In this document: positions 28,238 to 48,150 of the stretch, piece by piece
Layout: each line of letters opens with the position of its first letter
Numbering within the stretch: position 1 is the stretch's first letter
Virus record (IMG/VR): IMGVR_UViG_3300027810_000002
Coordinates: 64,001-128,000 of that record
Length of the DNA stretch: 64,000 nt
Strand: one strand, 5' to 3'
Origin: a virus
Notes under the pieces: generated by a model
Database searches by the model: none
The model's input: only the letters and a program-made list of their open reading frames with translations
Told to the model about the DNA's origin: nothing
Program-made: the position numbers and the translations under genes

Positions 28238-28831
28238 TTATTTATAGTGACCTCCACCTAACCAAAGAACAAATGATTTTCTAGTTCCTTTTGTAACTGG
28301 TTTAACAGAGTGTACCAAGTAGCTAGGAAATAAAACAACATTTCCTTTTCCTCTAGGTGCTATTAAGTTATTTTTATCTAAGGATTCTCCTCCTTGCCAA
28401 AAGCATAAGTCTCCTCCTTCATATTCTTCACTATCTGATAATTGAACGGTTATAGATACTTTTCTAATAGACATATCATGATCTCCAACATCTTGGTGCC
28501 AATCATATTTACCAAACTCAGTAGCTTCATATTCAGTATACTGTATTAATTCAGGAGCCGAATGTAAATCAAAATTCCACAGTTGGTTATTTGCTTCACT
28601 TGACATGTTTATTAATTTTTGATATAGCCATTTCCATTCTTCAGATTGTGGAATCCATTTGATATTTGATTTTCTATCTGCAGAACTGTCTCCAGAAGCT
28701 GTTACTGCTCTATTATATGGAATATTAGAAACTCCATCTTCAATCACCTTTAATTCTTGAGGTGTAAACCCCTGATCAAACCAATAGTACTGTTGAGCCT
28801 CGTTTTCTTGTGGTTTAAAAAAGTTATTCAT
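28238..28831 (-). CDS. 2OG-Fe(II) oxygenase (prolyl-hydroxylase/PKHD-like)
   Basis: WHQD, RKVSITVQLS, GGDL, FPSYLVHSVKPVTKGTRKS. Confidence 0.9.
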   Translation of the reverse strand: MNNFFKPQENEAQQYYWFDQGFTPQELKVIEDGVSNIPYNRAVTASGDSSADRKSNIKWIPQSEEWKWLYQKLINMSSEANNQLWNFDLHSAPELIQYTEYEATEFGKYDWHQDVGDHDMSIRKVSITVQLSDSEEYEGGDLCFWQGGESLDKNNLIAPRGKGNVVLFPSYLVHSVKPVTKGTRKSFVLWLGGGHYK

Positions 28832-30677
28832 TATCTGTATATGTTATATTTACTGCTCCTTCTTCTTTTCCGAATCTGGATTTTGTGTTAATAGGCCAAT
28901 CTGGATTTTCTGCATAAGCCCAATCATGTTGTCCAAGTTCTTCAAATCTTTCTTTAATTTGTTCGTTATATCTAGATGCGATAGTGCGTGTTCTTCTTTG
29001 TATATCTGCTCTAGATAGATCATGTGTATTTCTATGACCTTGATTACTATATAAAAATTGAATATAGCTTAACTTAGGTATCTTACACATAATAGTGTTT
29101 AAGAATGTTCTAATAATTAATTCGTAATCATCAACAACTGTTAAACTTCTATTGTGTCCTCCAATTGCAAAGTATGTAGATCTTCTCCACGCTCTAATGT
29201 GATTAGGAACTCCAACAATATGTCTAATTGTTTTTGGGTTAATATTTTGCTGATTAGCAGGGCTTAACATTCTACCTTGATATTCTTCTTCTCGATAGTT
29301 ACCATATCCTAATGCAAAACCAGGGCCATATTTTTGATTTTGCCATTGTTCATTTACTTCAGCAGTATCTCCATAAAAGAATCCACACTCTGGGTGTTTT
29401 TGTGCGGCGTTATGTAAATCCTGTGCACATGTTACTGCGAGTAAATCATCGTGATCTAGTTCTGCGATAATATATCCTCTAGCCATTGCATTTGCTCTCC
29501 ACTTGACCTCTCCGATAATCCCACCTGATTTTTCTCTAAAATCGTATAGCTTAACTCTAGGATCATTTGCTGCAATCTGCTCTGCAATCTTAAGTGTTTT
29601 ACCACCGTCAGTTGAATCGTTCATTAATACCCATTCCCAATTATCATAAGTTTGAGCAGCAACTGAGTTATAGGTGTTTATTAACTTTTCACCTGTGTTA
29701 TATATTGGAGTTGTAAAAGATATCATGCTATGATCGTCCATGTTTGTCGGATCTAACATTGCATTTTCAGAAACGTTATACGCAATGTCTCCTATGTTTT
29801 TAAAATCTTCGTCATTATCAATATTGATCCATTTTCTCCTAAATTGAAGAGGTAGTTTTGATAGATATTTAAAATCAGAAGAACTCTTTCCTCGAGTTAC
29901 TATTGCATCTGGTTTAAAACTGGATATTTTTTTTCTAATATCAGTATCATCCTTTGTATATTTAACCTCTAAGTTGTCATCCTCGTAATCGAGCACTTTA
30001 GTGGTTTTTATTACTGGTTCTCCAGGGCCTATGTATAAAATTCTAGGTAGTTTAGGTGTTGATACTTTTTCTAGTTGATTGTAATATGAAAGAATTTCAT
30101 TAATCCAAACAAATGTATCTGGGTGTTTCTTATATACTTCCTCGATAAAGAAACCATCAGCTGCATAATCTGCCGTGAAACCATATTTTTCAAAAAGCTC
30201 TGATCTAAATAATATTTGAGCTATGTCTGTTTTTCTGAAACCGGTAGATTCTGGAGTAGCTTCTCTATATTTTAATCCGGTAAAATCTTTACCATCTACT
30301 GACTGGCCAACCATTATAATTTTCTTTTCATAATTTATAGGTAGCGTTGCAAAGTCCTCAACTCTTTGATAAAATTCAGGGTGCATTATATTGTCGTCAT
30401 CTAGTAAATAAAACCAAGAATGTTTTAGGCTTTTTATTAAATCAGTTGTTTCAGGGTACATCATACCGCCTAACTGTCCTTTAATAAAATGAATTGTTGT
30501 GTTTGCTTGATCTAATTCAGATAAAATATTTGCATCAATATCCTTTAATGCCCTTGTATCAAATATAACATGCCAATGTATTTCTACTCCTCTTGTTTTA
30601 GAAGTGTCGAATACCGTTGGTTGTATTTTTAATAAATTAGATGTTCTAGTACATCTTGTGATTACGTTAATTTTCAT
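28824..30677 (-). CDS. Two-domain GT2 glycosyltransferase
   Basis: N-terminal GT-A (LLDDDN) and C-terminal GT2 (TPIYNT, QTYDNWEWVLMND, ELDHDD, DDYEL). Confidence 0.85.
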   Translation of the reverse strand: MKINVITRCTRTSNLLKIQPTVFDTSKTRGVEIHWHVIFDTRALKDIDANILSELDQANTTIHFIKGQLGGMMYPETTDLIKSLKHSWFYLLDDDNIMHPEFYQRVEDFATLPINYEKKIIMVGQSVDGKDFTGLKYREATPESTGFRKTDIAQILFRSELFEKYGFTADYAADGFFIEEVYKKHPDTFVWINEILSYYNQLEKVSTPKLPRILYIGPGEPVIKTTKVLDYEDDNLEVKYTKDDTDIRKKISSFKPDAIVTRGKSSSDFKYLSKLPLQFRRKWINIDNDEDFKNIGDIAYNVSENAMLDPTNMDDHSMISFTTPIYNTGEKLINTYNSVAAQTYDNWEWVLMNDSTDGGKTLKIAEQIAANDPRVKLYDFREKSGGIIGEVKWRANAMARGYIIAELDHDDLLAVTCAQDLHNAAQKHPECGFFYGDTAEVNEQWQNQKYGPGFALGYGNYREEEYQGRMLSPANQQNINPKTIRHIVGVPNHIRAWRRSTYFAIGGHNRSLTVVDDYELIIRTFLNTIMCKIPKLSYIQFLYSNQGHRNTHDLSRADIQRRTRTIASRYNEQIKERFEELGQHDWAYAENPDWPINTKSRFGKEEGAVNITYTDNE

Positions 30678-30688
30678 TTAATGTGGTT

Positions 30689-31621
30689 TTATTGTTCAAT
30701 GTCAAAGAAGAACATGTGGAAAAATCTTGCATTATCAATTGCATCTCCAAAGTATTCGGTCGCTGCGTGTAATTGTGATGAGTTAAATATTACTAGTCTA
30801 TTATATACATTTCCAATATCATCAATCTTTTCAAATTGAGTTCCATCGTAGAAATTCATTTCTTTATTAGTACCTCTGAATGTATTTAAATATTCATCTC
30901 CCATTCTAGATTCTTGACCTGGAAACGATGAAATTCCTGTAACTTTACTTCGATACATTGCAGTTCCTGTTTGTGGAGGTGCGTCTGGGGTTAAGTAAAC
31001 CATTGCAGCATACATTTGACTATCTACATGGTATACTATAGGTTGATCTGCAGTACAGAACTGAAACACTCCATTCGCATATCCACCATCATTCCAGTTT
31101 GTTATCTTTCTACCTAGTACTTCTTCAAGTTTTTCCTTAGTGCCATCTATAATATATCTAGATTGAGATCTTTGTCCTTTGTGATATTTAGAAGGTAAAA
31201 ACTCTAAATTGTTCATAGCATATTTTCTGACTAAGTCAGGATCTGCATAGAAATTATCAACAACAATAACATCTTTATCTGTTTTATTAAATCCAGATGA
31301 AGAAGCTGGCCATTTTGCTAAAGAAATAAGTTCAACTGGCGCTGCATCATTTAAACTAATCCATAGTTTTTTCGTAATATCTTCGTGTAGCATCATTATA
31401 TTAAATCCTACATTTTCCGGAATTGTTCCTTTATAAAAAGAAGAAACATCTGATCTCTTTTCCCATGAAATATTCAAGGATTTTCCATCTAATAGAACGT
31501 CAGTTACTATAGTATCTTTAGTTATTGAACCTACCCATCCTCTTACGTACCAATATCCATCGGTGGCTTTTTTAACAGAATCAATGTTTAATTTTACATT
31601 GTTTAAATTAGTTTCGTGCAT
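30689..31621 (-). CDS. Ig-like domain fused to 2OG-Fe(II) oxygenase (DUF6445-like)
   Basis: VRGWV...KRSDV...GF N-domain; VVDNFYADPD, HVD, YNRLVIF, HAA, RFFHMFF. Confidence 0.75.
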   Translation of the reverse strand: MHETNLNNVKLNIDSVKKATDGYWYVRGWVGSITKDTIVTDVLLDGKSLNISWEKRSDVSSFYKGTIPENVGFNIMMLHEDITKKLWISLNDAAPVELISLAKWPASSSGFNKTDKDVIVVDNFYADPDLVRKYAMNNLEFLPSKYHKGQRSQSRYIIDGTKEKLEEVLGRKITNWNDGGYANGVFQFCTADQPIVYHVDSQMYAAMVYLTPDAPPQTGTAMYRSKVTGISSFPGQESRMGDEYLNTFRGTNKEMNFYDGTQFEKIDDIGNVYNRLVIFNSSQLHAATEYFGDAIDNARFFHMFFFDIEQ

Positions 31622-31730: not shown

Positions 31731-34340
31731 TTATGTCGGAGTAATGGTACCACCGCCTTTGAGTCCTCCACCACCGCCTCCGGTTGCTGTAACTAATCCA
31801 TTAACGAATGTGACATTGTGTCCCGTACCGAAGAAAATGGTTTCACTAATAGCACTAATTGTTCCGTTAGTTCCTGGATGTCCTCCATAACCTCGTACAC
31901 CCTGAGGTCCATTTGCTCCAGTTGCTCCTGTAGGCCCTTTATAACCTTGTGGTCCATTTGATCCTGTTGGTCCTCCATTTCCGCCATTTCCTTTTGTTCC
32001 AGTATTACCTTTTGCTCCTTGGAATCCTCTTGGTCCTCCATTTCCAGTAAGTCCTTTATAACCTTGAGGTCCTACTTGTTGATATCCCTGAGATCCTTTA
32101 AGTCCAACTCCTAGACTGCTACCAGTGTTTCCTTGAACTCCTCGAACTGTTCCAGTTGGTCCTTTATAACCAGTAGGTCCTTTATTTCCTGTCCAACCTG
32201 TAATAGTAGTTCCGGTGGTTCCTCTTAATCCCTGAGGTCCTGTATATCCTTGAACTCCTTTTGGACTTGCTCCACCATTACCTTGTGCTCCTTGAGGTCC
32301 AGTATATCCTTTTGCTCCTCCGGGTTGTGATCCTTTAAGACCTTGAGGTCCCTTAGTACCAACTTTACCTTGATATCCCTTAGGCATTGCTCCTTTAGAA
32401 CCCTGAGTTCCTTGGGCTCCTTGTGGTCCTCTATGTCCAGTTAAAGAATCTCCAGTTGGGCCGGTGTTACCGGTTAGTCCTTTATAACCTGTAACTCCTT
32501 TATGTGATGTTGGACGTGCGCCTTGATTTCCTTGTGGTCCTCTTGGTCCAGTGCTTCCGGTTGGTTGTGCTCCTTTATCTCCTTGAGTACCCTGTGCTCC
32601 TTGTGGTCCTCTTGATCCTCCGGGCTGTGCTCCTTTATCTCCTTGGAATCCTCTTGGTCCTGTTAGTCCAATAAATCCTTTTGGCTGAGCTCCTTTATAT
32701 CCTTGAACTCCTTGAGCTCCTTGAACTCCTCTAAATCCTGTTGGATTTGCTCCTTGGAAACCTCTTTCTCCATTAATTCCTTTGAAACCGGTTGCTCCTG
32801 TTGGTGAAGATCCTTGAACTCCTCTTGGTCCAGTACTTCCAATAAATCCAGTATACCCCTTTGGCATTGCTCCTCTAATTCCTTGGAATCCTCTTGGTCC
32901 TGTTGGTCCTGTTGGCGAAGTTGGTCTAGCTCCTTGAAAACCTCTTGGTCCCGTATTTCCAGCATCACCGATAAGTGCGTTATATGCAGGTCCTGTTGGT
33001 CCTGTATATCCTGTTGGTCCGTTTGGTCCTATGTGTCCTTTTGGACTTGCTCCGATATTACCAATTGCTCCTTGAGATCCTTTAAGACCAGTATATCCCT
33101 TTGGACTTGGTCCTGTATATCCTGTTGGTCCGTTTACTCCTTTATCTCCTTGGAATCCTCTATTAGTACTTCCTTGAGATCCTCTAATACCCTGTACTCC
33201 TTGAAACCCTCTTGGTCCTGTTGGTGAATTACCAATAGCTCCTTGAAAACCTCTTGGTCCAGGATCTCCTGTTTGAGCAGCTGGTGTACTTCCAGTATTT
33301 CCTTGAAAACCTCTTTCTCCGTTTAATCCTTTGTCTCCAACTGGATTTGCTCCTTGTGCTCCTTTAAAACCAGGATAACCTTCAGCTCCTTGAAAACCTT
33401 TTGGACTATTTCCAACGTCTCCTTGAAAACCTCTGTCTCCGTTCAATCCTTTGTCTCCAACTGGATTTGCTCCTTGTGCTCCTTTAAAACCAGGATAACC
33501 TTCAGCTCCTTGAAAACCTTTTGGACTATTTCCAACGTCTCCTTGAAAACCTCTGTCTCCAGTTTGTCCTACTTGTGCAGTTTGAGTTGAACCCTGTGCT
33601 CCTTTTAATCCAGTTGCACCCTGTGAACCTTTATGTCCTTTTTGATTTGTACCTGCAGAACCTTGAAATCCTACATGTCCAACAAAACCAGTTGCTCCAC
33701 CAGGGTTTAACCCCGTAGTACCTTGATCTCCTTGAAAACCTCTGAAACCAGTTGCTCCTGTTAATTGATCTCCCTGAAACCCTCTTGGTCCATCAGGTCC
33801 AATATCACCAACGTAAGCTGTAATTACATTACCCTGTGATCCGGTTGAACCTTGATCTCCTTTTAGTCCTTTAAGACCATTAGTTATTTTACCTGCATCT
33901 CCAACTGTTCCTTGATTTCCTCTAAAACCTTCTGGTCCTTCTGGTGAATCTCCAACTGTTCCTTGGAATCCTCTAAAACCTTGATCAGCAGTACCTTTAT
34001 TTCCTTGAAAACCTCGATCTCCTTGAAAACCTATATTACCTTCATAACCTTGATGTCCTTGTGGACTGTCTCCTTGAAAACCTCTGAAACCAGTATCTCC
34101 AACAGGTTCTAAACCCGCAGATCCTTGAACTCCTTTATCTCCTTGAAAACCTCTATCTCCTTGAGAACCTTGAGAACCTTCAATACCTTGAAAACCTTGA
34201 TCTCCTTGAAAACCTTGAGCTCCAACAATACCTTGGTCTCCCTGGTCTCCTTTCAATTCAGGATAGTTATTAGCATCAAAGTTACCAGTATGTAGGGGAG
34301 TTTCTCCCCCTACAAGTGATCCTGTATTTAATTTTGCCAT
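31731..34340 (-). CDS. Collagen-like fibre chain A (periodically interrupted)
   Basis: ~277 GXY triplet-equivalents with a one-residue deficit every 20 aa. Confidence 0.9.
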
Positions 34341-34380
34341 GTTATTTTTATTCTTTTTTTATATATAATTAACTTATTGA

Positions 34381-37041
34381 TTATACTATGAATCCGTTTG
34401 TTACAGTAAATGGTGTACCATTGTCATCTACAAAAAATCCATTAAAACCATTACCAGTAGGTCCAGATCCAGGCCACCCAGCATAACCGATTTTACCCTG
34501 AGGTCCAAAGTTAGTTGGTCCATTACTTCCAGTTGCTCCTCTTGCTCCTGTTGATCCAGATCCTCCAGAAGATCCTTGAGCTCCTCTTGGTCCTGTTGAT
34601 CCTACTAAACCTTGATATCCTGTAGATCCTGGAGATGCAGCCTGTCCTTGAAATCCTCTTGAACCTTGAGATCCTGGTATTCCTGTATATCCTTGAAATC
34701 CTCTTGGTCCTGTTGGTGGGGTTGATCCTTTATATCCTGTTGGTCCATTACTACCTTGTGGTCCTCTTGACCCCGTTGGTCCTGTTGAACCTTTAGCTCC
34801 CTGTGGTCCTTTATAACCTTGTGCTCCTTGTGGACCCGTTGGTCCTTTATAACCTCCACCTCCGGTTGCTCCAGTTCCTCCTTGATATCCTCTTGGTCCA
34901 GTATTACCTTGTGCTCCTTGTGTACCTTGGAATCCTGTTATTCCTCTGTCTCCAGTGGCTCCTTGTGGTCCTCTGTCTCCCACTGCTGAAGTAGTTCCAG
35001 TAATACCTTTTTTACCAATAAATCCAGTATAACCTTTTGCTCCAGTTGCTCCCTGTGATCCAGTTGATCCCTGTGCTCCTTGATTTCCTTTAGCTCCAGT
35101 ATTTCCCTGTACTCCTGTTAATCCAGTTGCTCCTTTAAATCCAGTATAACCAGTTACTCCCTGTGCTCCTTGATTTCCTTGTGATCCGTTAACTCCTGTT
35201 TTACCAATAAATCCAGTATAACCTGTTGCTCCGGTAGATCCTTGTGAACCATTAACTCCAGGATAACCAGTTGGTCCCGTTGGTCCTTGATTTCCAACGG
35301 CTCCAGTTCCTCCAGTTACTCCTTTAGCTCCAACAAGTCCAGTATAACCTTTTGCTCCGGTTGCGCCCTGTGCTCCTGTAAATCCAGTAGGTCCTGTTGA
35401 ACCTTTAACTCCTTGTGCTCCTTGTGCTCCTTTTACATTAGTAAATCCTTGAGGTCCCGTTGGTCCTTGAGGACCTGTGTTACCAACATTAGATGTTGTT
35501 CCTGTTAATCCTTTAAAACCAGTAGCTCCTTTTGCTCCTTGTACTCCTTGTACTCCTGTTAATCCTTTATAACCGGTAGCTCCTTTTGCTCCTTGTGCTC
35601 CTTGTGCTCCTTTAGGTCTTTGAGATCCCTGAGGTCCCTGAGCTCCTTTTGCTCCTTGAGAACCTTTATTACCAGTAGCTCCTTTAGCTCCTATTGCTCC
35701 TTGGAATCCTCTTTCACCAAGTTCTCCAGTGTTTCCTATAGTACCCTGAGGTCCAGTTGATCCCTGTGCTCCTTGATTTCCTTTTAATCCTTCAAATCCT
35801 GTTGAACCAACAACTCCTCTATAACCAGTATCTCCTTTGAAACCGGTAAATCCTGTAGCTCCTTTAGCACCTTGTGCTCCAGTAACTCCTTGGAATCCCT
35901 TTGGTCCCGTTGGTCCTTGTGGTCCTCTTCCACCAGATCCACCAGTTAATCCTTGATAACCAGTTGCTCCAGTATTACCTTTAGTTCCTTGATTTCCTTT
36001 AGCTCCAGTATCTCCTTTAAGGCCGTTAATTCCTTTAATACCAACATATCCAGTAGAACCTTTAGCTCCTGTTGCTCCTTGAAAACCTGTTGCTCCAGTA
36101 TTACCCTTAGTTCCTTGATTTCCTTTAGCCCCAGTATCTCCTTTAAGTCCGTTAATTCCTTTAATACCAACATATCCTGTAGAACCTTTAGCTCCTGTTA
36201 CTCCTTGAAAACCTGTTGCTCCAGTAGATCCTTGTGTTCCTTGAGATCCAGTACTTCCTTTATCTCCTGAAAGACCTTGAAATCCTCTTTCACCAGGATC
36301 TCCTGGTAAAGAATCCGAAGCAGTTGCTCCTTTAAATCCTTTTTGTCCTGTTGAACCTTTAGATCCCTGAGATCCTTTAACTCCATTAGTTCCAGGTAAT
36401 CCTTCAAAACCAGTAGATCCTTTAGATCCCTGTGCTCCATTAACTCCGGTAAATCCTTTTAAACCGGTTGAACCTTGCGATCCTTTATTTCCTTTAACTG
36501 ATGTTGCTCCTTTAGCTCCTTGGAATCCTCTTTCTCCAGTATCTCCTTGTGTACCTTGTGTACCTTTAATACCGAGAGAACCTTGACTTCCTTGAAAACC
36601 TCTTTCTCCGTTAATTCCTTTTACACCCTGTGCTCCAGTAGCTCCTTGGAATCCTTGAAGTCCAATAGAACCTTGATCGCCGACTTGTCCTTGATACCCA
36701 TTAGAACCATTAGGACCTAATATACCTGTTATTCCTTTTTCTCCTCTAATTCCAGTTGCACCGGTAAAACCTTGAAGACCATTTGATCCTTGATTACCTT
36801 TACTACCAGTAGATCCTTGATCACCTTGAATACCTTGATAACCATCAGTTCCAACGAAACCTTGATTACCTGTATCACCTTGATGACCGACACTACCGTC
36901 GGATCCAACAGATCCTTGGGATCCTTGAGATCCCAATTCACCGTTTGGTCCAATAAGCTGAGGAAAATTCGTGCTATTAAGGTTACCACTGTGTAATACA
37001 AGATTACTGTCTAACGTAGTACCTAAGATAAATTTTGCCAT
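34381..37041 (-). CDS. Collagen-like fibre chain B
   Basis: ~277 triplets between a 30-aa N-cap and short C-cap. Confidence 0.9.
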   Translation of the reverse strand: MAKFILGTTLDSNLVLHSGNLNSTNFPQLIGPNGELGSQGSQGSVGSDGSVGHQGDTGNQGFVGTDGYQGIQGDQGSTGSKGNQGSNGLQGFTGATGIRGEKGITGILGPNGSNGYQGQVGDQGSIGLQGFQGATGAQGVKGINGERGFQGSQGSLGIKGTQGTQGDTGERGFQGAKGATSVKGNKGSQGSTGLKGFTGVNGAQGSKGSTGFEGLPGTNGVKGSQGSKGSTGQKGFKGATASDSLPGDPGERGFQGLSGDKGSTGSQGTQGSTGATGFQGVTGAKGSTGYVGIKGINGLKGDTGAKGNQGTKGNTGATGFQGATGAKGSTGYVGIKGINGLKGDTGAKGNQGTKGNTGATGYQGLTGGSGGRGPQGPTGPKGFQGVTGAQGAKGATGFTGFKGDTGYRGVVGSTGFEGLKGNQGAQGSTGPQGTIGNTGELGERGFQGAIGAKGATGNKGSQGAKGAQGPQGSQRPKGAQGAQGAKGATGYKGLTGVQGVQGAKGATGFKGLTGTTSNVGNTGPQGPTGPQGFTNVKGAQGAQGVKGSTGPTGFTGAQGATGAKGYTGLVGAKGVTGGTGAVGNQGPTGPTGYPGVNGSQGSTGATGYTGFIGKTGVNGSQGNQGAQGVTGYTGFKGATGLTGVQGNTGAKGNQGAQGSTGSQGATGAKGYTGFIGKKGITGTTSAVGDRGPQGATGDRGITGFQGTQGAQGNTGPRGYQGGTGATGGGGYKGPTGPQGAQGYKGPQGAKGSTGPTGSRGPQGSNGPTGYKGSTPPTGPRGFQGYTGIPGSQGSRGFQGQAASPGSTGYQGLVGSTGPRGAQGSSGGSGSTGARGATGSNGPTNFGPQGKIGYAGWPGSGPTGNGFNGFFVDDNGTPFTVTNGFIV

Positions 37042-37076
37042 GTTATTATTTTTATATTTTTATTTGTTTTATATTG

Positions 37077-39950
37077 TTATCCGATATTTACACCGTTTAC
37101 AATAGTACGTGCTCCTCCTGCTGCTAAAACAGTTCCGTTATATCCAGAATTTGCAGCAGAAATACCTTGAATTCCTTGTGGTCCTCTTACTCCGGTACCA
37201 GAACCACCTGTGGCTCCTTGATAACCTTGAGGTCCTCGAGATGCAGGTGATCCTGATGCTCCAGTATATCCTTTAGGTCCTTGTGCTCCGTTTGGTCCTT
37301 TTAATCCTGTAGATCCTTGTGATCCTGATATTCCTTTATATCCTTGAACTCCTCTTGGTCCTGTACTACCATTAGGTCCTATATAACCTTGTACTCCACG
37401 TGCTCCTACTGATCCAGTGGTACCCTTTACTCCTTGAGGTCCTGTATATCCTTGAGCTCCTTGTGCTCCTTGGTTTCCTTGAGCTCCTCTTACAGTACCT
37501 GCAAGTCCAATAAAACCTTTAAGTCCGGTTGAACCTTGTGGTCCTCTTCCTCCCTGTGGTCCTATTGGTCCAGTATATCCTTTTGGTCCTGTTGCTCCTT
37601 GGAATCCTCTGTGACCTGGTGCACCACCATAACCTTGTGCTCCAGTTGGTCCTGTATAACCCTGTACTCCTTGAGTTCCTCTTGCAGCCGCAGTTCCCTG
37701 TGGTCCAGTTAGTCCTTTATTACCAGTAGCTCCCTGTGGTCCTCTTGGTCCAGTAGATCCTTTAAAACCTGTATCTCCTTTTGCTCCTTGGAATCCTCTA
37801 ATTCCTTGTGGTCCAAGATCTCCAGTAGGTCCAGTTGCTCCTTTAGGTCCGATATATCCGATATATCCTTTTGGTCCAGTTGCTCCTTGAGGTCCTTTAG
37901 TTCCTTTTGCTCCAGTTGCTCCTTGATTACCCTTTGGTCCAGTTATTCCCTGAACTCCTTTTGCTCCTTGAAAACCTTTTGTTCCTTGGGCTCCTTGAGG
38001 TCCAGTATTTCCTTGAGGTCCTCTAATAGTTCCAGTACTTCCAATTACTCCTTGAAAACCTTTGTTTCCAGTAGCTCCGGTTGCTCCTTGATTACCTTTA
38101 ATTCCTTGGAATCCTCTGTCACCAGTTGCTGCAGTAGATCCTTTAAGACCTTGGAATCCGTTTGTTCCTTGGAATCCTTGGAATCCTCTTGGTGCAGCAG
38201 TTCCCTGTGCTCCGGTATTTCCTTGAAATCCAATCTTTCCAGTTGGTCCTAAATTACCAGTTGCTCCGGTATTTCCTTGAACTCCAATAAATCCTTTATC
38301 TCCTTTAGTTGCACTTGGGGCAATATATCCAGTGTCTCCTTGTGTTCCTCTGTCTCCAGTTGCTCCTTGATTACCTTGTGATCCTGTTACTCCAGTATAT
38401 CCTTTTGCACCAGTAGTACCTTTAGATCCTTGGAATCCTCTTGGTCCACTAGATCCTTGATGTCCTCTTTCACCAGCATCTCCTTGAACTCCTTTTGAAC
38501 CTTGTGGTCCAACTGCTCCAACAGATCCCTGTGCTCCTGTTACTCCAGTGTTTCCTTGAACTCCAATTGCTCCTGTTGATCCTTTATCTCCAATTGCTCC
38601 TTGAGGTCCTGTATAACCTTTTGCTCCTTGTGCTCCAAGAGGTCCTGTTAAACCTTTAGCTCCTTGATTTCCTTTGAAACCTTGATCTCCTTTAAGACCA
38701 ACATTTCCAATAATACCTTGATTTCCTTGGAATCCTCTTGAACCAGTATTACCCTGTGCTCCAGTAGATCCTTTTAAACCTTTAGCTCCTTGGTTTCCTT
38801 TGAAACCTTGATCTCCTTTAAGACCAACATTTCCAATAACACCTTGGTTTCCTTGAAAACCTCTTGAACCAGTATTACCCTGTGCTCCAGTAGATCCTTT
38901 TAAACCTTTAGCTCCTTTTGATCCTTTAAAACCTCTTTCACCAATGATACCATCGGCTCCAGTAGATCCTTGATAACCAGTTGCTCCAGTAGATCCTTGT
39001 GTTCCTATTACTTTATTAATACCAGCGTCTCCTTGAGTTCCTTGATTTCCTTGAAAACCTCTGTCTCCTACGGGTCCGTTAATACCTGTTGTTCCTTTAA
39101 TTCCTTTGTCTCCTTGGAATCCTCTGGCTCCATTTGAACCATTATTTCCTTTTGCTCCTTGAGGTCCTGTAAATCCAACGTCTCCTTGTGCTCCTCTGTT
39201 TCCATCAAGTCCTTTATAACCTGTTGCTCCAGTTGAACCTTTAAAACCTTGATCTCCGATTACCCCATCAGAACCTTGATCACCTTTATAACCGGTAACC
39301 CCTTGATTTCCCTGAACTCCAATAGGTCCAGTAACTCCTTTGTTTCCGACAGATCCTTGGAATCCTCTGGCACCATCTGCACCTGTTAAACCCTTAGTAC
39401 CTTGAGTACCTTTAGTTCCTTGATTTCCTTGGAATCCTCTTTCACCTTGATTTCCAACAATACCTTGAGTTCCTTGGAATCCTCTTTCACCTTTAGCTCC
39501 AGTAGTACCTGAAATACCAATATCTCCTACTAATCCTTTACTACCACGTGATCCTTCACTACCAGTATCTCCTACTAATCCAGTATTTCCAAGAGAACCT
39601 TTATCTCCACGAAAACCTTCATCACCCGTATTTCCTTTTGCTCCTTTTAAAGAAAGAAAATTACCCGGAATAAAATTACCAGGTCTTATCACTAGATTAC
39701 CACCGATTGTTGAATCAGCTTTAAAGTTTCCACCACCATCAAAAGTACCACCCGCTATAATTGCGGAATCAGTACTCCTAATAGTTAACACATTCCCCGC
39801 AGGGAATGTGTTTAACTCTTCTAGGTAAGACGGCGTATAGACGATAGCTGAACCTTGGTCGATACCTGCTCTGTTCGAAGTTTCATCGATCTGAGCCTGG
39901 AATTCTCCGGTAGATTGTACTAGTTTTATCGCTATTTTATTAAATGCCAT
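37077..39950 (-). CDS. Collagen-like fibre chain C
   Basis: ~276 triplets after a 102-aa N-domain. Confidence 0.9.
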   Translation of the reverse strand: MAFNKIAIKLVQSTGEFQAQIDETSNRAGIDQGSAIVYTPSYLEELNTFPAGNVLTIRSTDSAIIAGGTFDGGGNFKADSTIGGNLVIRPGNFIPGNFLSLKGAKGNTGDEGFRGDKGSLGNTGLVGDTGSEGSRGSKGLVGDIGISGTTGAKGERGFQGTQGIVGNQGERGFQGNQGTKGTQGTKGLTGADGARGFQGSVGNKGVTGPIGVQGNQGVTGYKGDQGSDGVIGDQGFKGSTGATGYKGLDGNRGAQGDVGFTGPQGAKGNNGSNGARGFQGDKGIKGTTGINGPVGDRGFQGNQGTQGDAGINKVIGTQGSTGATGYQGSTGADGIIGERGFKGSKGAKGLKGSTGAQGNTGSRGFQGNQGVIGNVGLKGDQGFKGNQGAKGLKGSTGAQGNTGSRGFQGNQGIIGNVGLKGDQGFKGNQGAKGLTGPLGAQGAKGYTGPQGAIGDKGSTGAIGVQGNTGVTGAQGSVGAVGPQGSKGVQGDAGERGHQGSSGPRGFQGSKGTTGAKGYTGVTGSQGNQGATGDRGTQGDTGYIAPSATKGDKGFIGVQGNTGATGNLGPTGKIGFQGNTGAQGTAAPRGFQGFQGTNGFQGLKGSTAATGDRGFQGIKGNQGATGATGNKGFQGVIGSTGTIRGPQGNTGPQGAQGTKGFQGAKGVQGITGPKGNQGATGAKGTKGPQGATGPKGYIGYIGPKGATGPTGDLGPQGIRGFQGAKGDTGFKGSTGPRGPQGATGNKGLTGPQGTAAARGTQGVQGYTGPTGAQGYGGAPGHRGFQGATGPKGYTGPIGPQGGRGPQGSTGLKGFIGLAGTVRGAQGNQGAQGAQGYTGPQGVKGTTGSVGARGVQGYIGPNGSTGPRGVQGYKGISGSQGSTGLKGPNGAQGPKGYTGASGSPASRGPQGYQGATGGSGTGVRGPQGIQGISAANSGYNGTVLAAGGARTIVNGVNIG

Positions 39951-39998: not shown

Positions 39999-42782
39999 TT
40001 AATCGAATGAGAATGTAATGTCTCCATTTGCGTCTCTTTCAATTCTTGCTGTTGGGTTACCATTAACATCGTTAAAATAAATAGCTTTATCATTGGCGAT
40101 TGTTATTGAATCTCCATCAAATGCACCAGTTTCTCCTTGATCTCCTTTAGTACCTTGAACTCCTTGAATACCATCGTCTCCTTTGAAACCTTGATCTCCT
40201 TTAGCTCCAGTATCTCCTTTGAAACCTTGATCTCCTTTAATACCTTGAATACCTTGAATACCATCGTCTCCTTTGAATCCTTGATCTCCTTTAATACCTT
40301 GAATACCATCGTCTCCTTTAATACCTTGAATACCATCGTCTCCTTTAGTACCCTGAACTCCGATAACTCCTTGTTCTCCAGTATCTCCTTTGAATCCTTG
40401 ATCTCCTTTAGCTCCAGTATCTCCTTTGAAACCTTGATCTCCTTTAATACCTTGAATACCATCGTCTCCTTTAGTACCTTGAACTCCGATAACTCCTTGT
40501 TCTCCAGTATCTCCTTTGAATCCTTGATCTCCTTTTAAACCAGTATCTCCTTTGAAACCTTGATCTCCTTTTAAACCTTGAATACCATTGTCTCCTTTGA
40601 ATCCTTGATCTCCTTTTAAACCAGTATCTCCTTTAGCTCCAGTATCTCCTTTGAAACCTTGATCTCCTTTAATACCTTGAATACCATCGTCTCCTTTAGT
40701 ACCTTGAACTCCTTGAATACCATCGTCTCCTTTAGTACCTTGAACTCCTTGAATACCATCGTCTCCTTTAGTACCCTGAACTCCGATAACTCCTTGTTCT
40801 CCTTGAATACCTTGAATACCATCGTCTCCTTTTAAACCTGTATCTCCTTGAATACCCTGTTCTCCTTGAATACCCTGTTCTCCTGTATCTCCTTTAAGAC
40901 CAGTATCTCCTTGAATACCTTGAATACCATCGTCTCCTTTAATACCTTGAATACCATCGTCTCCTTTAGTACCTTGAACTCCGATAACTCCTTGTTCCCC
41001 TTGGAAACCTTGAATACCTTGCTCTCCAGTATCTCCTTTGAAACCTTGATCTCCTTTTAAACCTTGAATACCATCGTCTCCTTTAGTACCTTGAACTCCT
41101 TGAATACCATCGTCTCCTTTAGTACCTTGAACTCCTTGAATACCTTGTTCTCCTGTATCTCCTTTAAGACCTGTATCTCCTTTGAATCCTTGATCTCCTT
41201 TAAGACCAGTTTCTCCTTGAATACCTTGAATACCATCGTCTCCTTTAGTACCTTGAACTCCTATAACTCCTTGTTCTCCTTGAATACCATCGTCTCCTTT
41301 AGTACCCTGAACTCCGATAACTCCTTGTTCTCCTTGAATACCTTGAATACCATCGTCTCCTTTAGTACCCTGAACTCCGATAACTCCTTGTTCTCCTTGA
41401 ATACCTTGAATACCATCGTCTCCTTTGAATCCTTGATCTCCTTTAGTACCTACAGTACCTTGAACTCCGATAACTCCTTGTTCTCCAGTATCTCCTTTTA
41501 AACCAGTATCTCCTTGAATACCTTGAATACCATCGTCTCCTTTGAAACCTTGATCTCCTTGAATACCTTGTTCTCCTTGAATACCTTGAATACCATCGTC
41601 TCCTTTAGTACCTACAGTACCTTGAACTCCGATAACTCCTTGTTCTCCTGTATCTCCTTTAAGACCAGTTTCTCCTTGAATACCTTGAATACCATTGTCT
41701 CCTTGGAAACCTTGTTCTCCTTGAATACCTTGTTCTCCTTGAATACCTTGAATACCATTGTCTCCTTGGAAACCTTGTTCTCCTTGAATACCTTGAATAC
41801 CATCGTCTCCTTTAAGACCAGTTTCTCCTTGAATACCATTGTCTCCTTGGAAACCTTGTTCTCCTTGAATACCTTGTTCTCCTTGAATACCTTGAATACC
41901 ATCGTCTCCTTTAGTACCTTGAACTCCGATAACTCCTTGTTCCCCTTGGAAACCTTGAATACCTTGTTCTCCTGTATCTCCTTTAAGACCAGTTTCTCCT
42001 TGAATACCCTGTTCTCCAGTATCTCCTTTGAATCCTTGATCTCCTTGAATACCTTGTTCTCCTGTATCTCCTTTAAGACCAGTTTCTCCTTGAATACCCT
42101 GTTCTCCAGTATCTCCTTTGAATCCTTGATCTCCTTGAATACCTTGAATACCATCGTCTCCTTTGAAACCTTGATCTCCTTGAATACCTTGAATACCATC
42201 GTCTCCTTTGAAACCCTGATCTCCTGTATCTCCTTTAAGACCAGTTTCTCCTTGAATACCTTGAATACCATTGTCTCCTTGGAAACCTTGTTCTCCTTGA
42301 ATACCTTGAATACCCTGTTCTCCTGTATCTCCTTTAAGACCAGTTTCTCCTTGAATACCTTGAATACCATTGTCTCCTTGGAAACCCTGTTCTCCTTGAA
42401 TACCTTGAATACCCTGTTCTCCTTGATCTCCTTTAAGACCATCTACTCCTTGATCTCCTTTAAGACCATCTACTCCTTGATCTCCTTGTTCCCCTTGGAA
42501 ACCTTGAATACCTTGTTCTCCTTGATCTCCTTTAAGACCAGTTTCTCCTTGAATACCAGTGTCTCCTTGGAAACCCTGTTCTCCTTGAACACCTTGAATA
42601 CCTTGTTCACCGGTATCTCCTTTAAAACCTTGATCTCCTTGAAGACCTTGATCTCCTTGAAAGCCTTGAACCCCATCAATACCTTGATCTCCTTGAAGAC
42701 CTTGATCTCCTTGCGCTCCTTGATATCCGGATCCTTGATCTCCCTGGGGACCTGCGGTAGAAATATATGCTGAATATGCCAT
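39999..42782 (-). CDS. Acidic, Pro-poor collagen-like protein (chain D)
   Basis: ~290 nearly uninterrupted triplets (GIQ, GEQ, GDQ, GDD, GFK, GLK); short C-terminal beta domain. Confidence 0.9.
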   Translation of the reverse strand: MAYSAYISTAGPQGDQGSGYQGAQGDQGLQGDQGIDGVQGFQGDQGLQGDQGFKGDTGEQGIQGVQGEQGFQGDTGIQGETGLKGDQGEQGIQGFQGEQGDQGVDGLKGDQGVDGLKGDQGEQGIQGIQGEQGFQGDNGIQGIQGETGLKGDTGEQGIQGIQGEQGFQGDNGIQGIQGETGLKGDTGDQGFKGDDGIQGIQGDQGFKGDDGIQGIQGDQGFKGDTGEQGIQGETGLKGDTGEQGIQGDQGFKGDTGEQGIQGETGLKGDTGEQGIQGFQGEQGVIGVQGTKGDDGIQGIQGEQGIQGEQGFQGDNGIQGETGLKGDDGIQGIQGEQGFQGDNGIQGIQGEQGIQGEQGFQGDNGIQGIQGETGLKGDTGEQGVIGVQGTVGTKGDDGIQGIQGEQGIQGDQGFKGDDGIQGIQGDTGLKGDTGEQGVIGVQGTVGTKGDQGFKGDDGIQGIQGEQGVIGVQGTKGDDGIQGIQGEQGVIGVQGTKGDDGIQGEQGVIGVQGTKGDDGIQGIQGETGLKGDQGFKGDTGLKGDTGEQGIQGVQGTKGDDGIQGVQGTKGDDGIQGLKGDQGFKGDTGEQGIQGFQGEQGVIGVQGTKGDDGIQGIKGDDGIQGIQGDTGLKGDTGEQGIQGEQGIQGDTGLKGDDGIQGIQGEQGVIGVQGTKGDDGIQGVQGTKGDDGIQGVQGTKGDDGIQGIKGDQGFKGDTGAKGDTGLKGDQGFKGDNGIQGLKGDQGFKGDTGLKGDQGFKGDTGEQGVIGVQGTKGDDGIQGIKGDQGFKGDTGAKGDQGFKGDTGEQGVIGVQGTKGDDGIQGIKGDDGIQGIKGDQGFKGDDGIQGIQGIKGDQGFKGDTGAKGDQGFKGDDGIQGVQGTKGDQGETGAFDGDSITIANDKAIYFNDVNGNPTARIERDANGDITFSFD
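40130..42750 (-). repeat. Mosaic of 9-bp codon-triplet repeats in chain D
   Basis: Recurrent ccttgaata / ccatcgtct / cctttaaga / ccttgatct units. Confidence 0.85.
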
Positions 42783-42816: not shown

Positions 42817-43581
42817 TTAGTCTAATGAGTTTTTCTCGTATACTATATCGAAAAGATCTCCTCCTCCGATTTCATATCCTGCGAAATTTGAATTCCAAAA
42901 CAGTTCATCACCAGCTTCTAAATCTGCAACAGATTTGGCAGTGATACCTGCGTTGTTAGAGAAATATACATCTCCTGTTTTTTCTCCGTAAGTTTCAGTA
43001 ACAGCTACACCGTTAATATAAACCTGTACAGTTGAATCTGCGAAAGGAGTATAGTCTAATGTAATACCTGTTGCTGATTCATCTCCGTTAGATGCAAGAG
43101 GTGCTAAATCAGCCTGTGTGTATTCAGTACCTTGTGCTACCTGAGTTGGACCTAAACTTGGTCTCCATGGTAATACTTGTGCTTTTGTTGCTGAAATCGC
43201 TTGTAAAACTGGATTGCTGTATGCATACACTGGATCAGAAGCATTCACAAACGCTGAGATAGAACCTGAATCAGATTCATCAACTACGTAAAAAGTACCT
43301 GGAGTTAAATTCCAAGTTGATACTTCAATGTTACCAATTTGTACTGCAATAAAATTAGAATCATCAGTAGCTTCTTCAACTACTAATCTTCCCAATTTGT
43401 CGGCAGTTTTAGAATCTGCTAAAACCCAAGAACCGTTAAAGAATGCAATAACATTCCCTGCTGCAAAACCATGAGCAGCTTGTTCGTAACTTGATTTTAA
43501 AGATCCTGATGCCAGTTGAGAATCGATAGACTCTAACTTTGTCTGTAAGCCTTCGATTTGCTTAATTTTTAATTGTGACAT
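42817..43581 (-). CDS. Fibre anchor/adaptor protein
   Basis: N-terminal MSQLKIKQI; HGFAAGNVI...LTPGTFY head-fibre-like domain; C-terminal VYINGV domain paralogous to 48336..49589. Confidence 0.6.
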   Translation of the reverse strand: MSQLKIKQIEGLQTKLESIDSQLASGSLKSSYEQAAHGFAAGNVIAFFNGSWVLADSKTADKLGRLVVEEATDDSNFIAVQIGNIEVSTWNLTPGTFYVVDESDSGSISAFVNASDPVYAYSNPVLQAISATKAQVLPWRPSLGPTQVAQGTEYTQADLAPLASNGDESATGITLDYTPFADSTVQVYINGVAVTETYGEKTGDVYFSNNAGITAKSVADLEAGDELFWNSNFAGYEIGGGDLFDIVYEKNSLD

Positions 43582-43706: not shown

Positions 43707-44297
43707 ATGATAAATAGTATAATGAATAGTATTACTAAGAAGATAGTTAGAGATTACATATATTTTAGAGAAACATTAGATGACGTAAAAACTATTTCTA
43801 GTGATGCGGAAGGTATGTTTAGGGACGCGATGCACGATCATAATGAGGTTGCACTAACAGCTCTCACTCCACCAGAAGGAGCACCTCCTATTAAAAAAAT
43901 TGATGAAGAACTTGTTGTAAAATTTGAAGACAAGCTCTTTAAAAAGCTTTTTAGAAAGATAGCAGTATTATGCCATCCGGATAAATTAGATGATTCTTAC
44001 TCTGAAAGAGAAGCTACATTTTTAAAAAAATGCTATGAAGATCTCAATACTTCTAACCAAACATACGATTGGGGATTGTTGTTGAAAGTTGCTATGGAAC
44101 TGGATGTTGAAATTCCGGAATTAAGCGATGAGCAATTTATTAACATTAATAATAATATAGAATCTATTAAAAATACTATTAACCAGTTTGAAGGATCTAT
44201 GGCTTATAAATGGTATACCCTCTCCGACACTGATGCCAAGAAAGGGTATTTAGAAAGCTGTGCTTCTATATTTATGGATAGTTTAAAGAATCGTTAA
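43707..44297 (+). CDS. Atypical J-domain protein
   Basis: Internal KKLFRKIAVLCHPDK (HPD) motif; only plus-strand gene in the left 57 kb. Confidence 0.7.
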   Translation: MINSIMNSITKKIVRDYIYFRETLDDVKTISSDAEGMFRDAMHDHNEVALTALTPPEGAPPIKKIDEELVVKFEDKLFKKLFRKIAVLCHPDKLDDSYSEREATFLKKCYEDLNTSNQTYDWGLLLKVAMELDVEIPELSDEQFININNNIESIKNTINQFEGSMAYKWYTLSDTDAKKGYLESCASIFMDSLKNR

Positions 44298-45076
44298 ACG
44301 TCCCACTTATTAGTTAGATGACATCTTACATAAACAGGTGCCTGATACGCAATACCATTAGGATATTCTGATTGCAATCTCGTATAAAAGTCTACATCTT
44401 CTGACGTGTCTTTAGAGATAATATCTCTCCATTTTGTTGATAAATTAGATTTGTGCATAAATAACCAAGGTGCCATTATCTGTCTGTCTGGTTTTACTTG
44501 AATTGGCTTCCATGCCTCTGGTAAACCTTCTATCTGAATTGCCGGTGTTTCTGAAGGATCTAATATAGCATTCCCATTAGCTAGCTCAGTTGAAACAGAC
44601 TCATGATCAAACCATGAGGTATTTATCCACCAATCTTTTTCTGGGTTTGCGTTAAAATATAAAAGAGATGTCATCGTTGCGTTTGGCATTAAAAAATCAT
44701 CTGAATCCATATACATTACAACGTGGCCGGTTGCTGCAGCTGCACCTAGTCTTCTACCGAATCCTCTATAATATCTTCCTTTATCTTCTATTTCCTCGTA
44801 CATTTGAGGAGTGTCTGTTCTATCGAAATATATTAGTTTTATATTTGGTGTGTTCTTGTGTGATCTATTAAATAGTTGATGTGTTTTATTACACCCATCT
44901 GCTACTATAATAAGTTCGCAGTTTTTATATGTTTGGTTTTGAAAACTTTCGACTGCCCTGTGAAATTTACCAATAGGATCTTTTCTTGAATTTTCGTAGT
45001 TTTCTAGGTTTACTTGCATCACTATAGATATTTTTATCTTGTTTAGTGATTCGAATATTTCTTTAAAATTGCTCAT
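44294..45076 (-). CDS. GT2 glycosyltransferase
   Basis: SFQNQTYKNCELIIVADG, YMDSDD, SEDVDF. Confidence 0.85.
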   Translation of the reverse strand: MSNFKEIFESLNKIKISIVMQVNLENYENSRKDPIGKFHRAVESFQNQTYKNCELIIVADGCNKTHQLFNRSHKNTPNIKLIYFDRTDTPQMYEEIEDKGRYYRGFGRRLGAAAATGHVVMYMDSDDFLMPNATMTSLLYFNANPEKDWWINTSWFDHESVSTELANGNAILDPSETPAIQIEGLPEAWKPIQVKPDRQIMAPWLFMHKSNLSTKWRDIISKDTSEDVDFYTRLQSEYPNGIAYQAPVYVRCHLTNKWDV

Positions 45077-46272
45077 TATTTATATAGGTTTGTTTTCCAA
45101 TTATATTTATAAGATAATTCATGTGTTCCTGGTTTAAATAAATTATCTATTAACTTTTTATATGTATCTACCAGATCCGCGTTAGTTGACAAATAACGGT
45201 CTAATACTTTTTTACTGTTTTCATTATATTGATCTAGGTTATTGTCATGTTCCTCAAGTGCCAATTTTAATTGATCGGCTCCTTGTGATATATTAAATCC
45301 TTCATAATAATATCCTGCATCCTTTATCATGTCTGCATTGTGCACTATAGGGTACCCAAAATAGAGTGCGTCTAAGTATGCATAGTTTAATGGGTTTTCC
45401 CATTGGTGTGATAAGACTATGTCGGTTTCACTTGCTAAGAACGTCGATACTGGGTACCTTCCAACATACTTTATTTTGTTATCTGGAGAGTTAACTATGT
45501 CGAAATTCTTAATCATCGATAAATAGTATTTATTCTTTAGTAATTTCTTGCCAGATCCTATGTATATTTGTTTAAACGCGTTTTTACCGGATTCTCTAAA
45601 AACTCTTTCAGCGATCATGATAGTCATCAATGAATATTTAACAACATTTATATTTGGTTCCATTACAGATAACTTTTTATCTTTAGCATCCTTTGGAATA
45701 TATCCCGGAATCAATTTGCCGGCACGTTTTAGTAATTTATTAAATTCATCAAGCGGCTCAGGGTCCCATATGAAAGGAACTGTTTTTATCTGAGAATCCT
45801 CTTGTCTGTATATTGTTTTAAAGTATTCTAGGTTTTGATATTCCTGTTGAGGTATTACCCATGTTTCGTCGTGGCCTCCATCCCATGAAGGAACCATTGA
45901 CTCGGTAATTGTATCAAACATTACTCGTTCCATGTCAACTACATAACTATTTCCACATTGGTATTTTACTACTTTTAAATTTGGATTTTTGCTTTTCATT
46001 AAAGATATCCTACTTGTAGGCAAAGAAGCACCTACCATAAACATTAAGTCTATCTCATTCTCCATCGCTGTAAATTTTGCGATTTTATATTTATTATAAT
46101 CCCAGTTTACTTTAGTTAAATCAGAAACATTCTTAGCTGCGTCTAAAATATAAACATCAAGTCCTTCTATTTGGTTTAACATTTTAGATAGGTTCAGCGC
46201 ATTTAATTTAATGCCGTTGATCCACATGCTTTCATATTCCTTTGTTAGGGATATTATAATTCCTACTTTCAT
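45076..46272 (-). CDS. DUF2827-like putative glycosyltransferase
   Basis: SMWINGIKLN, VMEPNINVVK, SHQWENPLNYAYLDALYFGYPIVHNA. Confidence 0.7.
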   Translation of the reverse strand: MKVGIIISLTKEYESMWINGIKLNALNLSKMLNQIEGLDVYILDAAKNVSDLTKVNWDYNKYKIAKFTAMENEIDLMFMVGASLPTSRISLMKSKNPNLKVVKYQCGNSYVVDMERVMFDTITESMVPSWDGGHDETWVIPQQEYQNLEYFKTIYRQEDSQIKTVPFIWDPEPLDEFNKLLKRAGKLIPGYIPKDAKDKKLSVMEPNINVVKYSLMTIMIAERVFRESGKNAFKQIYIGSGKKLLKNKYYLSMIKNFDIVNSPDNKIKYVGRYPVSTFLASETDIVLSHQWENPLNYAYLDALYFGYPIVHNADMIKDAGYYYEGFNISQGADQLKLALEEHDNNLDQYNENSKKVLDRYLSTNADLVDTYKKLIDNLFKPGTHELSYKYNWKTNLYK

Positions 46273-46377: not shown

Positions 46378-48150
46378 TTAGTGTTGGTAAACGAATACTA
46401 CTTCGTCTTGTGCATCAATTACATAACCTGGGTTAGATAAAGTAACCTGTGGTCCTGCAACTGTTTGAACAAATACTCTGTGTCCGTTAACAAATACATC
46501 TACTAAAGATGATTGGTCTTCTTGTACAGGGTGTGCTAAACTGTAAACTAATCCAGCTCCAGCGAATGTTTCAGTAGCCATTTGATCATCTTCGATGATA
46601 GCAGCTTCTAATACATCTAATCTACCGTCTTGAACTGATTGCTCAGCGTCAGTAGAAGCGATTTCAGCAGCTAGTGCAGAATCAATTCTTGTAACGTCAG
46701 CGTTAGTAGCAACGATTTCAGCGTTTAACTGAGATTGTAAATCAGAATCAGCTTGATCTCTTGCTAATTCCTCAGCAGCCATTTCAGCGTCATGCTTAGC
46801 TTCTAATGAAGTAAAGTCTGCGTTAGTAGCAGCGATTTCATCAACTAAACCAGCTTCAACCTCTGATACTCTCGTATCGATTGAAGTAAATTCAGCAGTG
46901 ATAGCTCCTTCTAAAGAAATAACATCAGAATTAGTAGCAGCGATTTCAGCAGATAAAGCAGTATCGATTCTAGTAACATCAGAGTTAGTAGCAGCGATTT
47001 CAGCAGATAAAGCAGAATTGATACTAGTGATATCAGAATCAGTAGCAGCGATTTCAGCGTTTAAGTTAGAAATTACTACAGCTAAAGCGTTATCATTTAC
47101 AGTATCAACAGCGTTGATTAAAGAAACAACCTCAACGAATGTATCTTTGTCAGCGTCAGCAGCTAATAAGATTGCGTCGATTCTTGCGTTTTCTGCATCA
47201 ATGTTAGCTTGTAACGTTGAGTCAGCAGCAGCATAAGCAGCTTCAACTCTTACGAAGTCAGAATTAGTAGATGCAATTTCTGCAGCTAATTCTCCTTCAA
47301 CTCTTGTAAAGTCAGAGTTAGTAGAAGCGATTTCAGCAGCTAGTGCAGAATCAATTCTTGTAACGTCTCCATTAGTAGCTAAAACTTCAGCGTCTAATTC
47401 AACTCTTAAGTCAGATACTTCATCAACTAAATCTCCAGATACTTCTCCTAATCTTAAGTCAATAGAAGTAACATCAGAATTAGTAGATGCGATTTCATTG
47501 TCTAAAGCAGATTGTAATGCAGTGTCAGCTTGCTCTCTTGCTAATTCCTCAGCAGACATTTCAGCGTCATGCTTAGCCTCTAAAGAAGTGAAGTCAGAGT
47601 TAGTAGCTGCAATCTCTGCAGATAATTCTCCTTCAACTCTTGTAAAGTCAGCGTTTGTTGCAGCGATCTCTTGAGAGATTGCTAAGTTAATGCTTGTGAA
47701 ATCTGCGTTAGTTGCAGAGATCTCATTGTTTAAGTCAACGATTACCGCTCCTAAAGCGTTATCATTTTCTAAATCAACAGCATTGATTAAAGAAACAACC
47801 TCAACGAATGTATCTTTATCAGCATCAGCTGCTAATAAGATTGCGTCGATTCTTGCATTTTCTGCATCAATGTTAGATTGTAACGTTGATTCAGCACCTT
47901 CAGCTCTTGATTGTTCAGTAGATAAATCTCCTTCTAATCTAGAAACGTCTGTGTTTGTAGCTGATACTTCACCAGCTAAAGCAACTTCTAAAGAGTCAAT
48001 TGATGCGTCTAATTCCGTTTGAGCTGCAACTATCTCATCACCAACGTACTTTGCGATGTCAGATGTGTTTGCAATCTCAAAAGAAGATGTAGCTGCCCAG
48101 TTTACTGTGCTTAAGAAATCCTTAATTTGTTTTGAACGAATTTGTGCCAT
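46378..48150 (-). CDS. Acidic coiled-coil fibre protein
   Basis: 18-residue AEIAATNSDxTRxDxAL repeats; duplicated ADADKDTFVEVVSLINAVD; C-terminal VFVNG domain. Confidence 0.75.
   Translation of the reverse strand: MAQIRSKQIKDFLSTVNWAATSSFEIANTSDIAKYVGDEIVAAQTELDASIDSLEVALAGEVSATNTDVSRLEGDLSTEQSRAEGAESTLQSNIDAENARIDAILLAADADKDTFVEVVSLINAVDLENDNALGAVIVDLNNEISATNADFTSINLAISQEIAATNADFTRVEGELSAEIAATNSDFTSLEAKHDAEMSAEELAREQADTALQSALDNEIASTNSDVTSIDLRLGEVSGDLVDEVSDLRVELDAEVLATNGDVTRIDSALAAEIASTNSDFTRVEGELAAEIASTNSDFVRVEAAYAAADSTLQANIDAENARIDAILLAADADKDTFVEVVSLINAVDTVNDNALAVVISNLNAEIAATDSDITSINSALSAEIAATNSDVTRIDTALSAEIAATNSDVISLEGAITAEFTSIDTRVSEVEAGLVDEIAATNADFTSLEAKHDAEMAAEELARDQADSDLQSQLNAEIVATNADVTRIDSALAAEIASTDAEQSVQDGRLDVLEAAIIEDDQMATETFAGAGLVYSLAHPVQEDQSSLVDVFVNGHRVFVQTVAGPQVTLSNPGYVIDAQDEVVFVYQH

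Follow-up and report, generated by a model that had tools for sequence, protein, structure and literature searches.

The window, that is, the whole 64,000-nucleotide stretch of DNA analysed here, is part of a 175-kb linear virus record whose completeness was estimated at 66%. The sequencing runs with matches to it were marine and seawater runs. The window encodes a baseplate wedge protein that is nearest to those of uncultured huge phages (40% identity) and of Lak phages (about 34%), and it is in this phage structural region that the collagen-like Gly-X-Y genes stand. Four of them (D, C, B and A) follow each other on the minus strand:

39999..42782, minus strand: chain D gene, 289 unbroken triplets, acidic
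37077..39950, minus strand: chain C gene, 957 aa, 278 triplet-equivalents after a 102-aa N-terminal domain, putative middle strand
34381..37041, minus strand: chain B gene, 886 aa, 280 triplet-equivalents, putative leading strand
31731..34340, minus strand: chain A gene, 869 aa, 279 triplet-equivalents, putative trailing strand

The only Pfam match of the collagen chains is PF01391; their C-terminal tails measure about 20-45 aa, and no C1q or NC1 head was detected in them by Pfam. Chains A, B and C are low in proline and carry Gln, Thr and Lys at the Y position. Their helix lengths are matched, at 280/278/279 triplets for B/C/A. Chain D (39999-42782, minus strand) is almost proline-free, and its counterparts in relatives sometimes bear inserted domains. 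In relatives it is anywhere between 40 and 357 triplets long, with no link to the lengths of A, B and C, and it was therefore used as a negative control. It probably forms a separate fibre. A fifth collagen gene, of 2,046 aa and about 550 triplets, lies beyond the window (G000:C1:136938-143075, minus strand).

The collagen genes are flanked on both sides as follows:

28238-31621 and 44294-46272, minus strand: 2OG-Fe(II) oxygenase, two family-2 glycosyltransferases, DUF6445 and DUF2827

Their products could hydroxylate or glycosylate the Thr/Lys-rich chains. Several neighbouring proteins (42817-43581 and 46378-48150, minus strand; also L085, 15364-22204) begin with a similar short Ile-x-x-Lys-Gln-Ile motif, which occurs too in a gene cluster of the huge phage LR756500 and is possibly a common anchoring peptide.

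Chains A, B and C share paralogous N-terminal caps:

34251..34340, minus strand: A cap, 30 aa
36952..37041, minus strand: B cap, 30 aa
39645..39734, minus strand: C cap, residues 73-102

The three caps align without gaps up to the first Gly of the helix, and they are a candidate chain-selection and registration domain. Complex prediction with the three N-terminal 60-mers gave a weak score of 0.33, against 0.02 for the best control; 58 of 80 solved complexes attained the mark applied, as did 2 of 110 mismatched pairs, and with a score of 0.60 or under it was attained by only seven of the 80 and by both mismatches. The prediction runs agreed in at least 70% of contacts, with partner pLDDT of at least 71. 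The caps had no match among solved structures. For the C-only extension (residues 1-72) no family match was obtained, nor did a protein database search with C residues 1-105 give any match; the AlphaFold model of the C N-terminal domain (pLDDT 41) was unusable.

Tandem duplications in chains A, B and C

Each of the three genes contains a tandem duplication of a 14-triplet block:

33441..33560, minus strand: A block copy 1, triplets 81-94, 40 aa
33321..33440, minus strand: A block copy 2, triplets 95-108, the match extending about 21 nt further to 33300
36097..36222, minus strand: B block copy 1, triplets 82-95, 42 aa
35971..36096, minus strand: B block copy 2, triplets 96-109
38790..38915, minus strand: C block copy 1, triplets 82-95, 42 aa
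38664..38789, minus strand: C block copy 2, triplets 96-109

Triplet numbers are our own, the one-residue deficits of chain A being counted as whole triplets. The coordinates, lengths and triplet positions given for these duplications in the earlier note proved correct on recomputation. The copies differ at one position over 120 bp in A, and at five positions over 126 bp in both B and C. A separate search of each gene for internal repeats returned a single outstanding repeat, with periods of 120, 126 and 126 nt and scores of 133/123/127 for A/B/C, against 29/42/27 for the next best. That the duplicated sequences differ from each other was confirmed as well: the three units are unrelated, and even in the best rotation no more than 6-10 of the 28 X/Y residues are identical. 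The chance that three independent, uniformly placed starts fall within 3 triplets of each other is about 5e-4, equal length not yet being required.

The earlier note had raised the possibility of an assembly artefact, which is contradicted for A and C by the contig break points. In a 31-mer graph, the repeated 31-mers predict contig ends at 33354 and 33531 (A) and at 38697 and 38888 (C). Four runs, each from a different study, have Logan contigs that stop exactly at 33354 and 33531; one of the runs could be the source sample of the window. For the C repeat, contigs end at 38697 in two runs and at 38888 in three, and a 156-nt (126+30) loop contig through the junction is present in one run. The A and C repeats are therefore present in the reads. 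The two B copies have no common 31-mer, so the B repeat is unlikely to have been made by a k-mer graph. Among the contig joints listed, none skipped 120 or 126 nt, although such contigs drop rare variants.

Register and shape of the putative fibre

In the collagen helix, the Y residue of a strand contacts the X residue one triplet further along the next strand, or two triplets further when the contact goes from the trailing strand to the leading one, a canonical i+2, i+2, i+5 axial pattern (PMC11923368); cation-pi pairs that are N-to-C axial have a stabilising effect (PMC12086834). Contacts were scored as a simple count of Lys/Arg-Asp/Glu and Arg-Phe/Tyr pairs at every inter-chain offset. Pairs of Y-position Lys/Arg with X-position Asp/Glu, and of Arg with Phe/Tyr, peak at +1 triplet from B to C, +1 from C to A and +2 from A to B only, which is the canonical i+2, i+2, i+5 pattern. 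The register with B leading, C in the middle and A trailing had 116 contacts, against 69 for the runner-up among 10,086 states (z 11.9), while shuffled chains gave at most 46 (2,000 shuffles). Between-chain contacts numbered 30/47/39 in the B-C-A direction and at most 12-15 in the reverse one. The same order also came top in L001, L002, L065, L006, L010, L090 and L091 (z 6.3-12.2). L007 keeps the cyclic order with a one-triplet offset, and in L030, where the gene order is another, a single three-chain register stands out (z 11.2).

Seven contacts are identical in each copy of the block. When the block was removed from one or two chains without loop-out, the contacts downstream fell from 59 to 24-32, whereas removal from all three chains retained the register. 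Taken together, these patterns in the sequences make it probable that the three chains wind into one heterotrimeric collagen fibre, with B as the leading, C as the middle and A as the trailing strand; the chain lengths would be kept in step by recombination and selection. Selection for chain-to-chain complementarity, as suggested in the earlier note, is well supported by the single register, by the loss of contacts on unmatched deletion, and by the matched lengths and recurrent matched arrays of relatives described below.

Between triplets 30 and 238, chain A lacks one residue at roughly every seventh triplet, a series of about 30 units (32199-33953, minus strand). Gly substitutions in B and C fall mostly at the deficit positions of A: 8 of 11 non-Gly triplets in B and 7 of 9 in C are within one triplet of an A deficit, against 39% expected. 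The collagen helix rises by 0.286 nm per residue, which makes the rod about 240 nm long if fully helical, the block adding about 12 nm. In a helix of 7/2 symmetry seven triplets form one superhelical turn, and only under this symmetry would the 14-triplet block amount to two turns. The A deficits would then share one face and the rod would curve; with another twist it would coil. Unequal interruptions between chains were proposed to kink the helix, their structural effect being described as not understood (PMC11923368). The fibre is probably carried on the virion, and its likeliest role would be that of a curled virion fibre in host capture.

Variations on this architecture were observed in relatives. 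In L030 (3735-8784), one chain has an extra residue every 14 triplets and another lacks one at those positions, the third chain being unbroken (+1, -1 and 0). At the end of chain A in L006 (9363-9870) and in L007 there is an extra domain of 164-190 aa with a Cys-Leu-like start and a His-Asn end. It had no Pfam match at E 0.01; by eye, it looks like a Hint (intein-like) domain.

Relatives and origin of the matched blocks

The close cassettes that were scored in all chains are three distinct ones plus L067. The block is present in A, B and C of L002, which is 89% identical to the window, and absent from all three in L001 (83-85% identical). L067 (72-76% identical) has it in B and C, with a single copy in A (278/277/261). 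Copy number is thus matched in the window, L002 and L001 but not in L067; carriage in only one or two chains, which the earlier note would have counted against its reading if common among relatives, is true of one of the four close cassettes and is not common. Over 11 cassettes the helix length ranges from 161 to 280 triplets, and the spread within a cassette is at most 7 in 10 of the 11, the exception being L067. In L065, each chain is 57 triplet-equivalents shorter than in the window (171, 171 and 163 residues).

Matched expansions recur. In L010 a 7-triplet unit (63/63/60 nt) is repeated 4.6-4.8 times in every chain. The sister cassettes L090 (4.2-4.4 copies) and L091 (3.2-3.6 copies) have a unit of 21 triplets (189/189/180 nt), the array starting at triplets 76-80 in each chain; in all three chains of L090 copies 1 and 2 are the closest pair. 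The lineages with matched arrays are separate on the tree of flanking genes. The units of the arrays and of the block are all multiples of seven triplets, the A unit being shorter by one residue per seven. Such multiples are accounted for by the loss of one residue per 7 triplets in A, the phase of which must be kept. Matched repeats in L007 (21 triplets) and L030 (14-42) were seen at the protein level only and are weak. A possible older matched 6-triplet repeat near triplet 150 was left uncounted, since in A it could reflect the reuse of a motif.

A profile search gave one close match and nine weak ones. L076-L081 were rejected as relatives, being unrelated collagens. Exact look-ups of nine chains found nothing, a segment of L067 A had no match in protein databases, and no relatives were found in the prokaryote genomes or GenBank phages searched. 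In the huge phage LR756500, no collagen cassette adjoins the 254-aa homologue.

In L067, the proximal part of A is nearly identical to that of the window, with a change point at triplet 83, and the distal part still fits the unduplicated register. Its state may be a real intermediate or a reversion. It may equally be an assembly collapse or a chimera: the C gene of L071 shows three base differences from that of L002 and lacks the block, so that a collapse is possible in L067 too. If L067 is a stable natural allele, selection for matching would be looser than proposed. Its chain A also has a 52-nt repeat (triplets 81-86 and 102-107, 180-nt spacing) that is absent from the window and suggests that the following segment was gene-converted by the block.

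Copies within a strain are more alike than either is to the copies of another strain. No site was diagnostic of the copy, whereas strain-diagnostic sites numbered 7 in B and 4 in C for the window and L002, and 21 in B and 15 in C for the window and L067. Mismatches between copies also differ by chain (1/5/5 in the window, 10/5/1 in L002). As the copies are homogenised within strains, the block must have been repeatedly converted or re-expanded and copy divergence is no clock; the dating of the three events by synonymous divergence, envisaged in the earlier note, thus fails. At triplets 79-81, the single-copy alleles of A and C contain direct repeats of 25-32 nt, spaced exactly 120 nt apart in A and 126 nt apart in C. 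In single-copy B, direct repeats of at least 22 nt are missing at the block, so microhomology does not account for the origin of the B duplication. There are 13-21 such repeat pairs per gene; many duplications are accessible, and the matched one alone was seen. Synonymous divergence between strains steps up at triplets 77-98 in A and C (in C, for example, from 3.7% to 14.5%, p 2e-5), which points to crossovers between strains at the block. The genome encodes a RecA-family protein.

Globular inserts of 150-170 aa occur in single chains of relatives, and the register resumes within 1-2 triplets after them (L007, L010 and, weakly, L065). A loop-out is therefore tolerated. The 150-170 aa module stands in C of L065 (11588-12100; no Pfam match), in B of L007 (from residue 280) and in both B and C of L010. 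As far as can be read from the sequences, it suggests a mobile binding module hung off the rod.

A stepwise route can be proposed from these observations. Since strand contacts would be position-specific, a change of length in one gene would misalign everything beyond it, except where the added segment is looped out. Short direct repeats would allow ordinary unequal recombination, also across strains, by which blocks are duplicated or deleted in one gene at a time, and the unmatched state would survive as a loop-out. A duplication of the same length and place in the partner genes would then absorb the loop, restore the contacts and lengthen the fibre by about 12 nm, so that matched states would persist. 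Loop-out intermediates and selection are presumed parts of this route. Stepwise recombination filtered by selection on register most likely explains the data without a coordinating enzyme. A mechanism coordinating length change across genes, the other option of the earlier note, is not needed and finds no support in the unrelated units, the flanking repeats of A and C, the tolerated inserts or the two-chain state of L067 as assembled.

Other explanations were weighed against this one. That the duplications are artefacts of assembly or chance coincidences in repetitive DNA can practically be dismissed: short-read metagenome assembly of repetitive genes can indeed get presence or absence wrong, as in L071, but the copies have internal mismatches, contigs from four studies break where repeats predict, diverged relatives carry their own versions, and the matched starts are improbable by chance. 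It is unlikely that A, B and C form three separate homotrimers packed side by side in a bundle that needs matched length. A within-chain Arg-Phe peak at +1 in A and C would fit such a bundle, but between-chain peaks at exactly +1, +1 and +2 in one cyclic direction are the geometry inside one triple helix, and homotrimers reached only 25-51 contacts (51 at best) against 116 for B-C-A.

Even less probable than the bundle, a dedicated system such as a site-specific recombinase or a retroelement could have changed all three genes together. In its favour, matched states prevail, and the chains of each of L010, L090 and L091 agree in copy number. Against it, the three units have no common sequence, copy divergence varies between chains, the chains of the assembled L067 do not match, and the record (66% complete) yielded neither a reverse transcriptase nor a resolvase or tyrosine integrase. 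Within the heterotrimer itself, a single origin is a serious though less favoured history: the common ancestor of the window, L002, L001 and L067 would have acquired the triple duplication in a single origin, gene conversion would have kept the copies uniform, and the block would later have collapsed in A, B and C of L001 and in A of L067. This history competes with separate gains in the lineages of L067 and the window, not with the heterotrimer. The block boundaries in B are nearly equal in the window and the more distant L067 (gene nt 816 and 819) even though single-copy B has no flanking repeat, the diagnostic sites that distinguish these two are all of strains and none of copies, and the branching of the window, L002 and L001 is not settled by the flanking-gene tree. 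On the other side, a single origin takes 7 events against 5 for separate gains (our count), the outgroup L006 has the single-copy spacing of A interruptions (77 to 98), and in a flanking gene the window and L002 are closer to each other (3.9%) than to L001 (8.5%).

Returning to the stepwise route, the fuller picture would be of a phage family with a natural heterotrimeric fibre of periodic curvature, whose length works as a three-gene accordion in multiples of 7 triplets and whose proximal and distal segments are exchanged between strains near a register point at about triplet 80. The case for this picture as a whole is evenly balanced.

Comparison with known collagens

The stalk of complement C1q is an animal ABC heterotrimeric collagen. 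With it and the other animal ABC collagens (collagen IX, collagen IV alpha3-alpha4-alpha5) the phage set shares three different chains, a one-residue stagger, a register set by axial contacts, and aligned interruptions. Chain alignments, aligned interruptions and a register of axial Lys/Arg-Asp/Glu and cation-pi pairs were described for the animal proteins (PMC11923368). The phage set differs from them in being phage-encoded and low in proline, in having short paralogous caps with no C1q or NC1 head found, in the roughly 30 periodic one-residue deficits of one chain, and in three genes that change length in step.

Like Scl, BclA, the PRD1 spike and gp42 of Agrobacterium phage Miki, the phage set consists of Gly-X-Y rods without the animal machinery. 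With phage fibre collagens it has in common that these are fibre genes, with Thr-rich Y positions beside glycosyltransferase genes. Bacterial and phage collagen-like proteins were described or modelled as homotrimers (PMC8968730; PMC13611946). In a homotrimer one duplication lengthens all strands at once, whereas here it takes a change at the matching position in each of three genes. Heterotrimeric collagens are known from animals, prokaryotic ones being described as homotrimers (PMC8968730), and our literature search found no heterotrimeric phage collagen and no matched duplications across chains.

A natural ABC helix of 280 triplets with short caps offers a bacterially expressible model for chain selection and register. 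Chain A provides some 30 unequal interruptions in a regular series, of a kind whose effect is structurally not understood (PMC11923368). Compensatory evolution across three genes can be tested directly on the single-copy, double-copy and two-of-three alleles that occur in nature.

In-frame duplications of 5-15 residues in COL3A1 are rare pathogenic alleles in vascular Ehlers-Danlos syndrome (PMC11992433). They likewise keep the Gly-X-Y repeat, yet perturb the helix formed with unduplicated chains. Unlike in COL3A1, the partner chains here have matching duplications, and this state is common to several strains.
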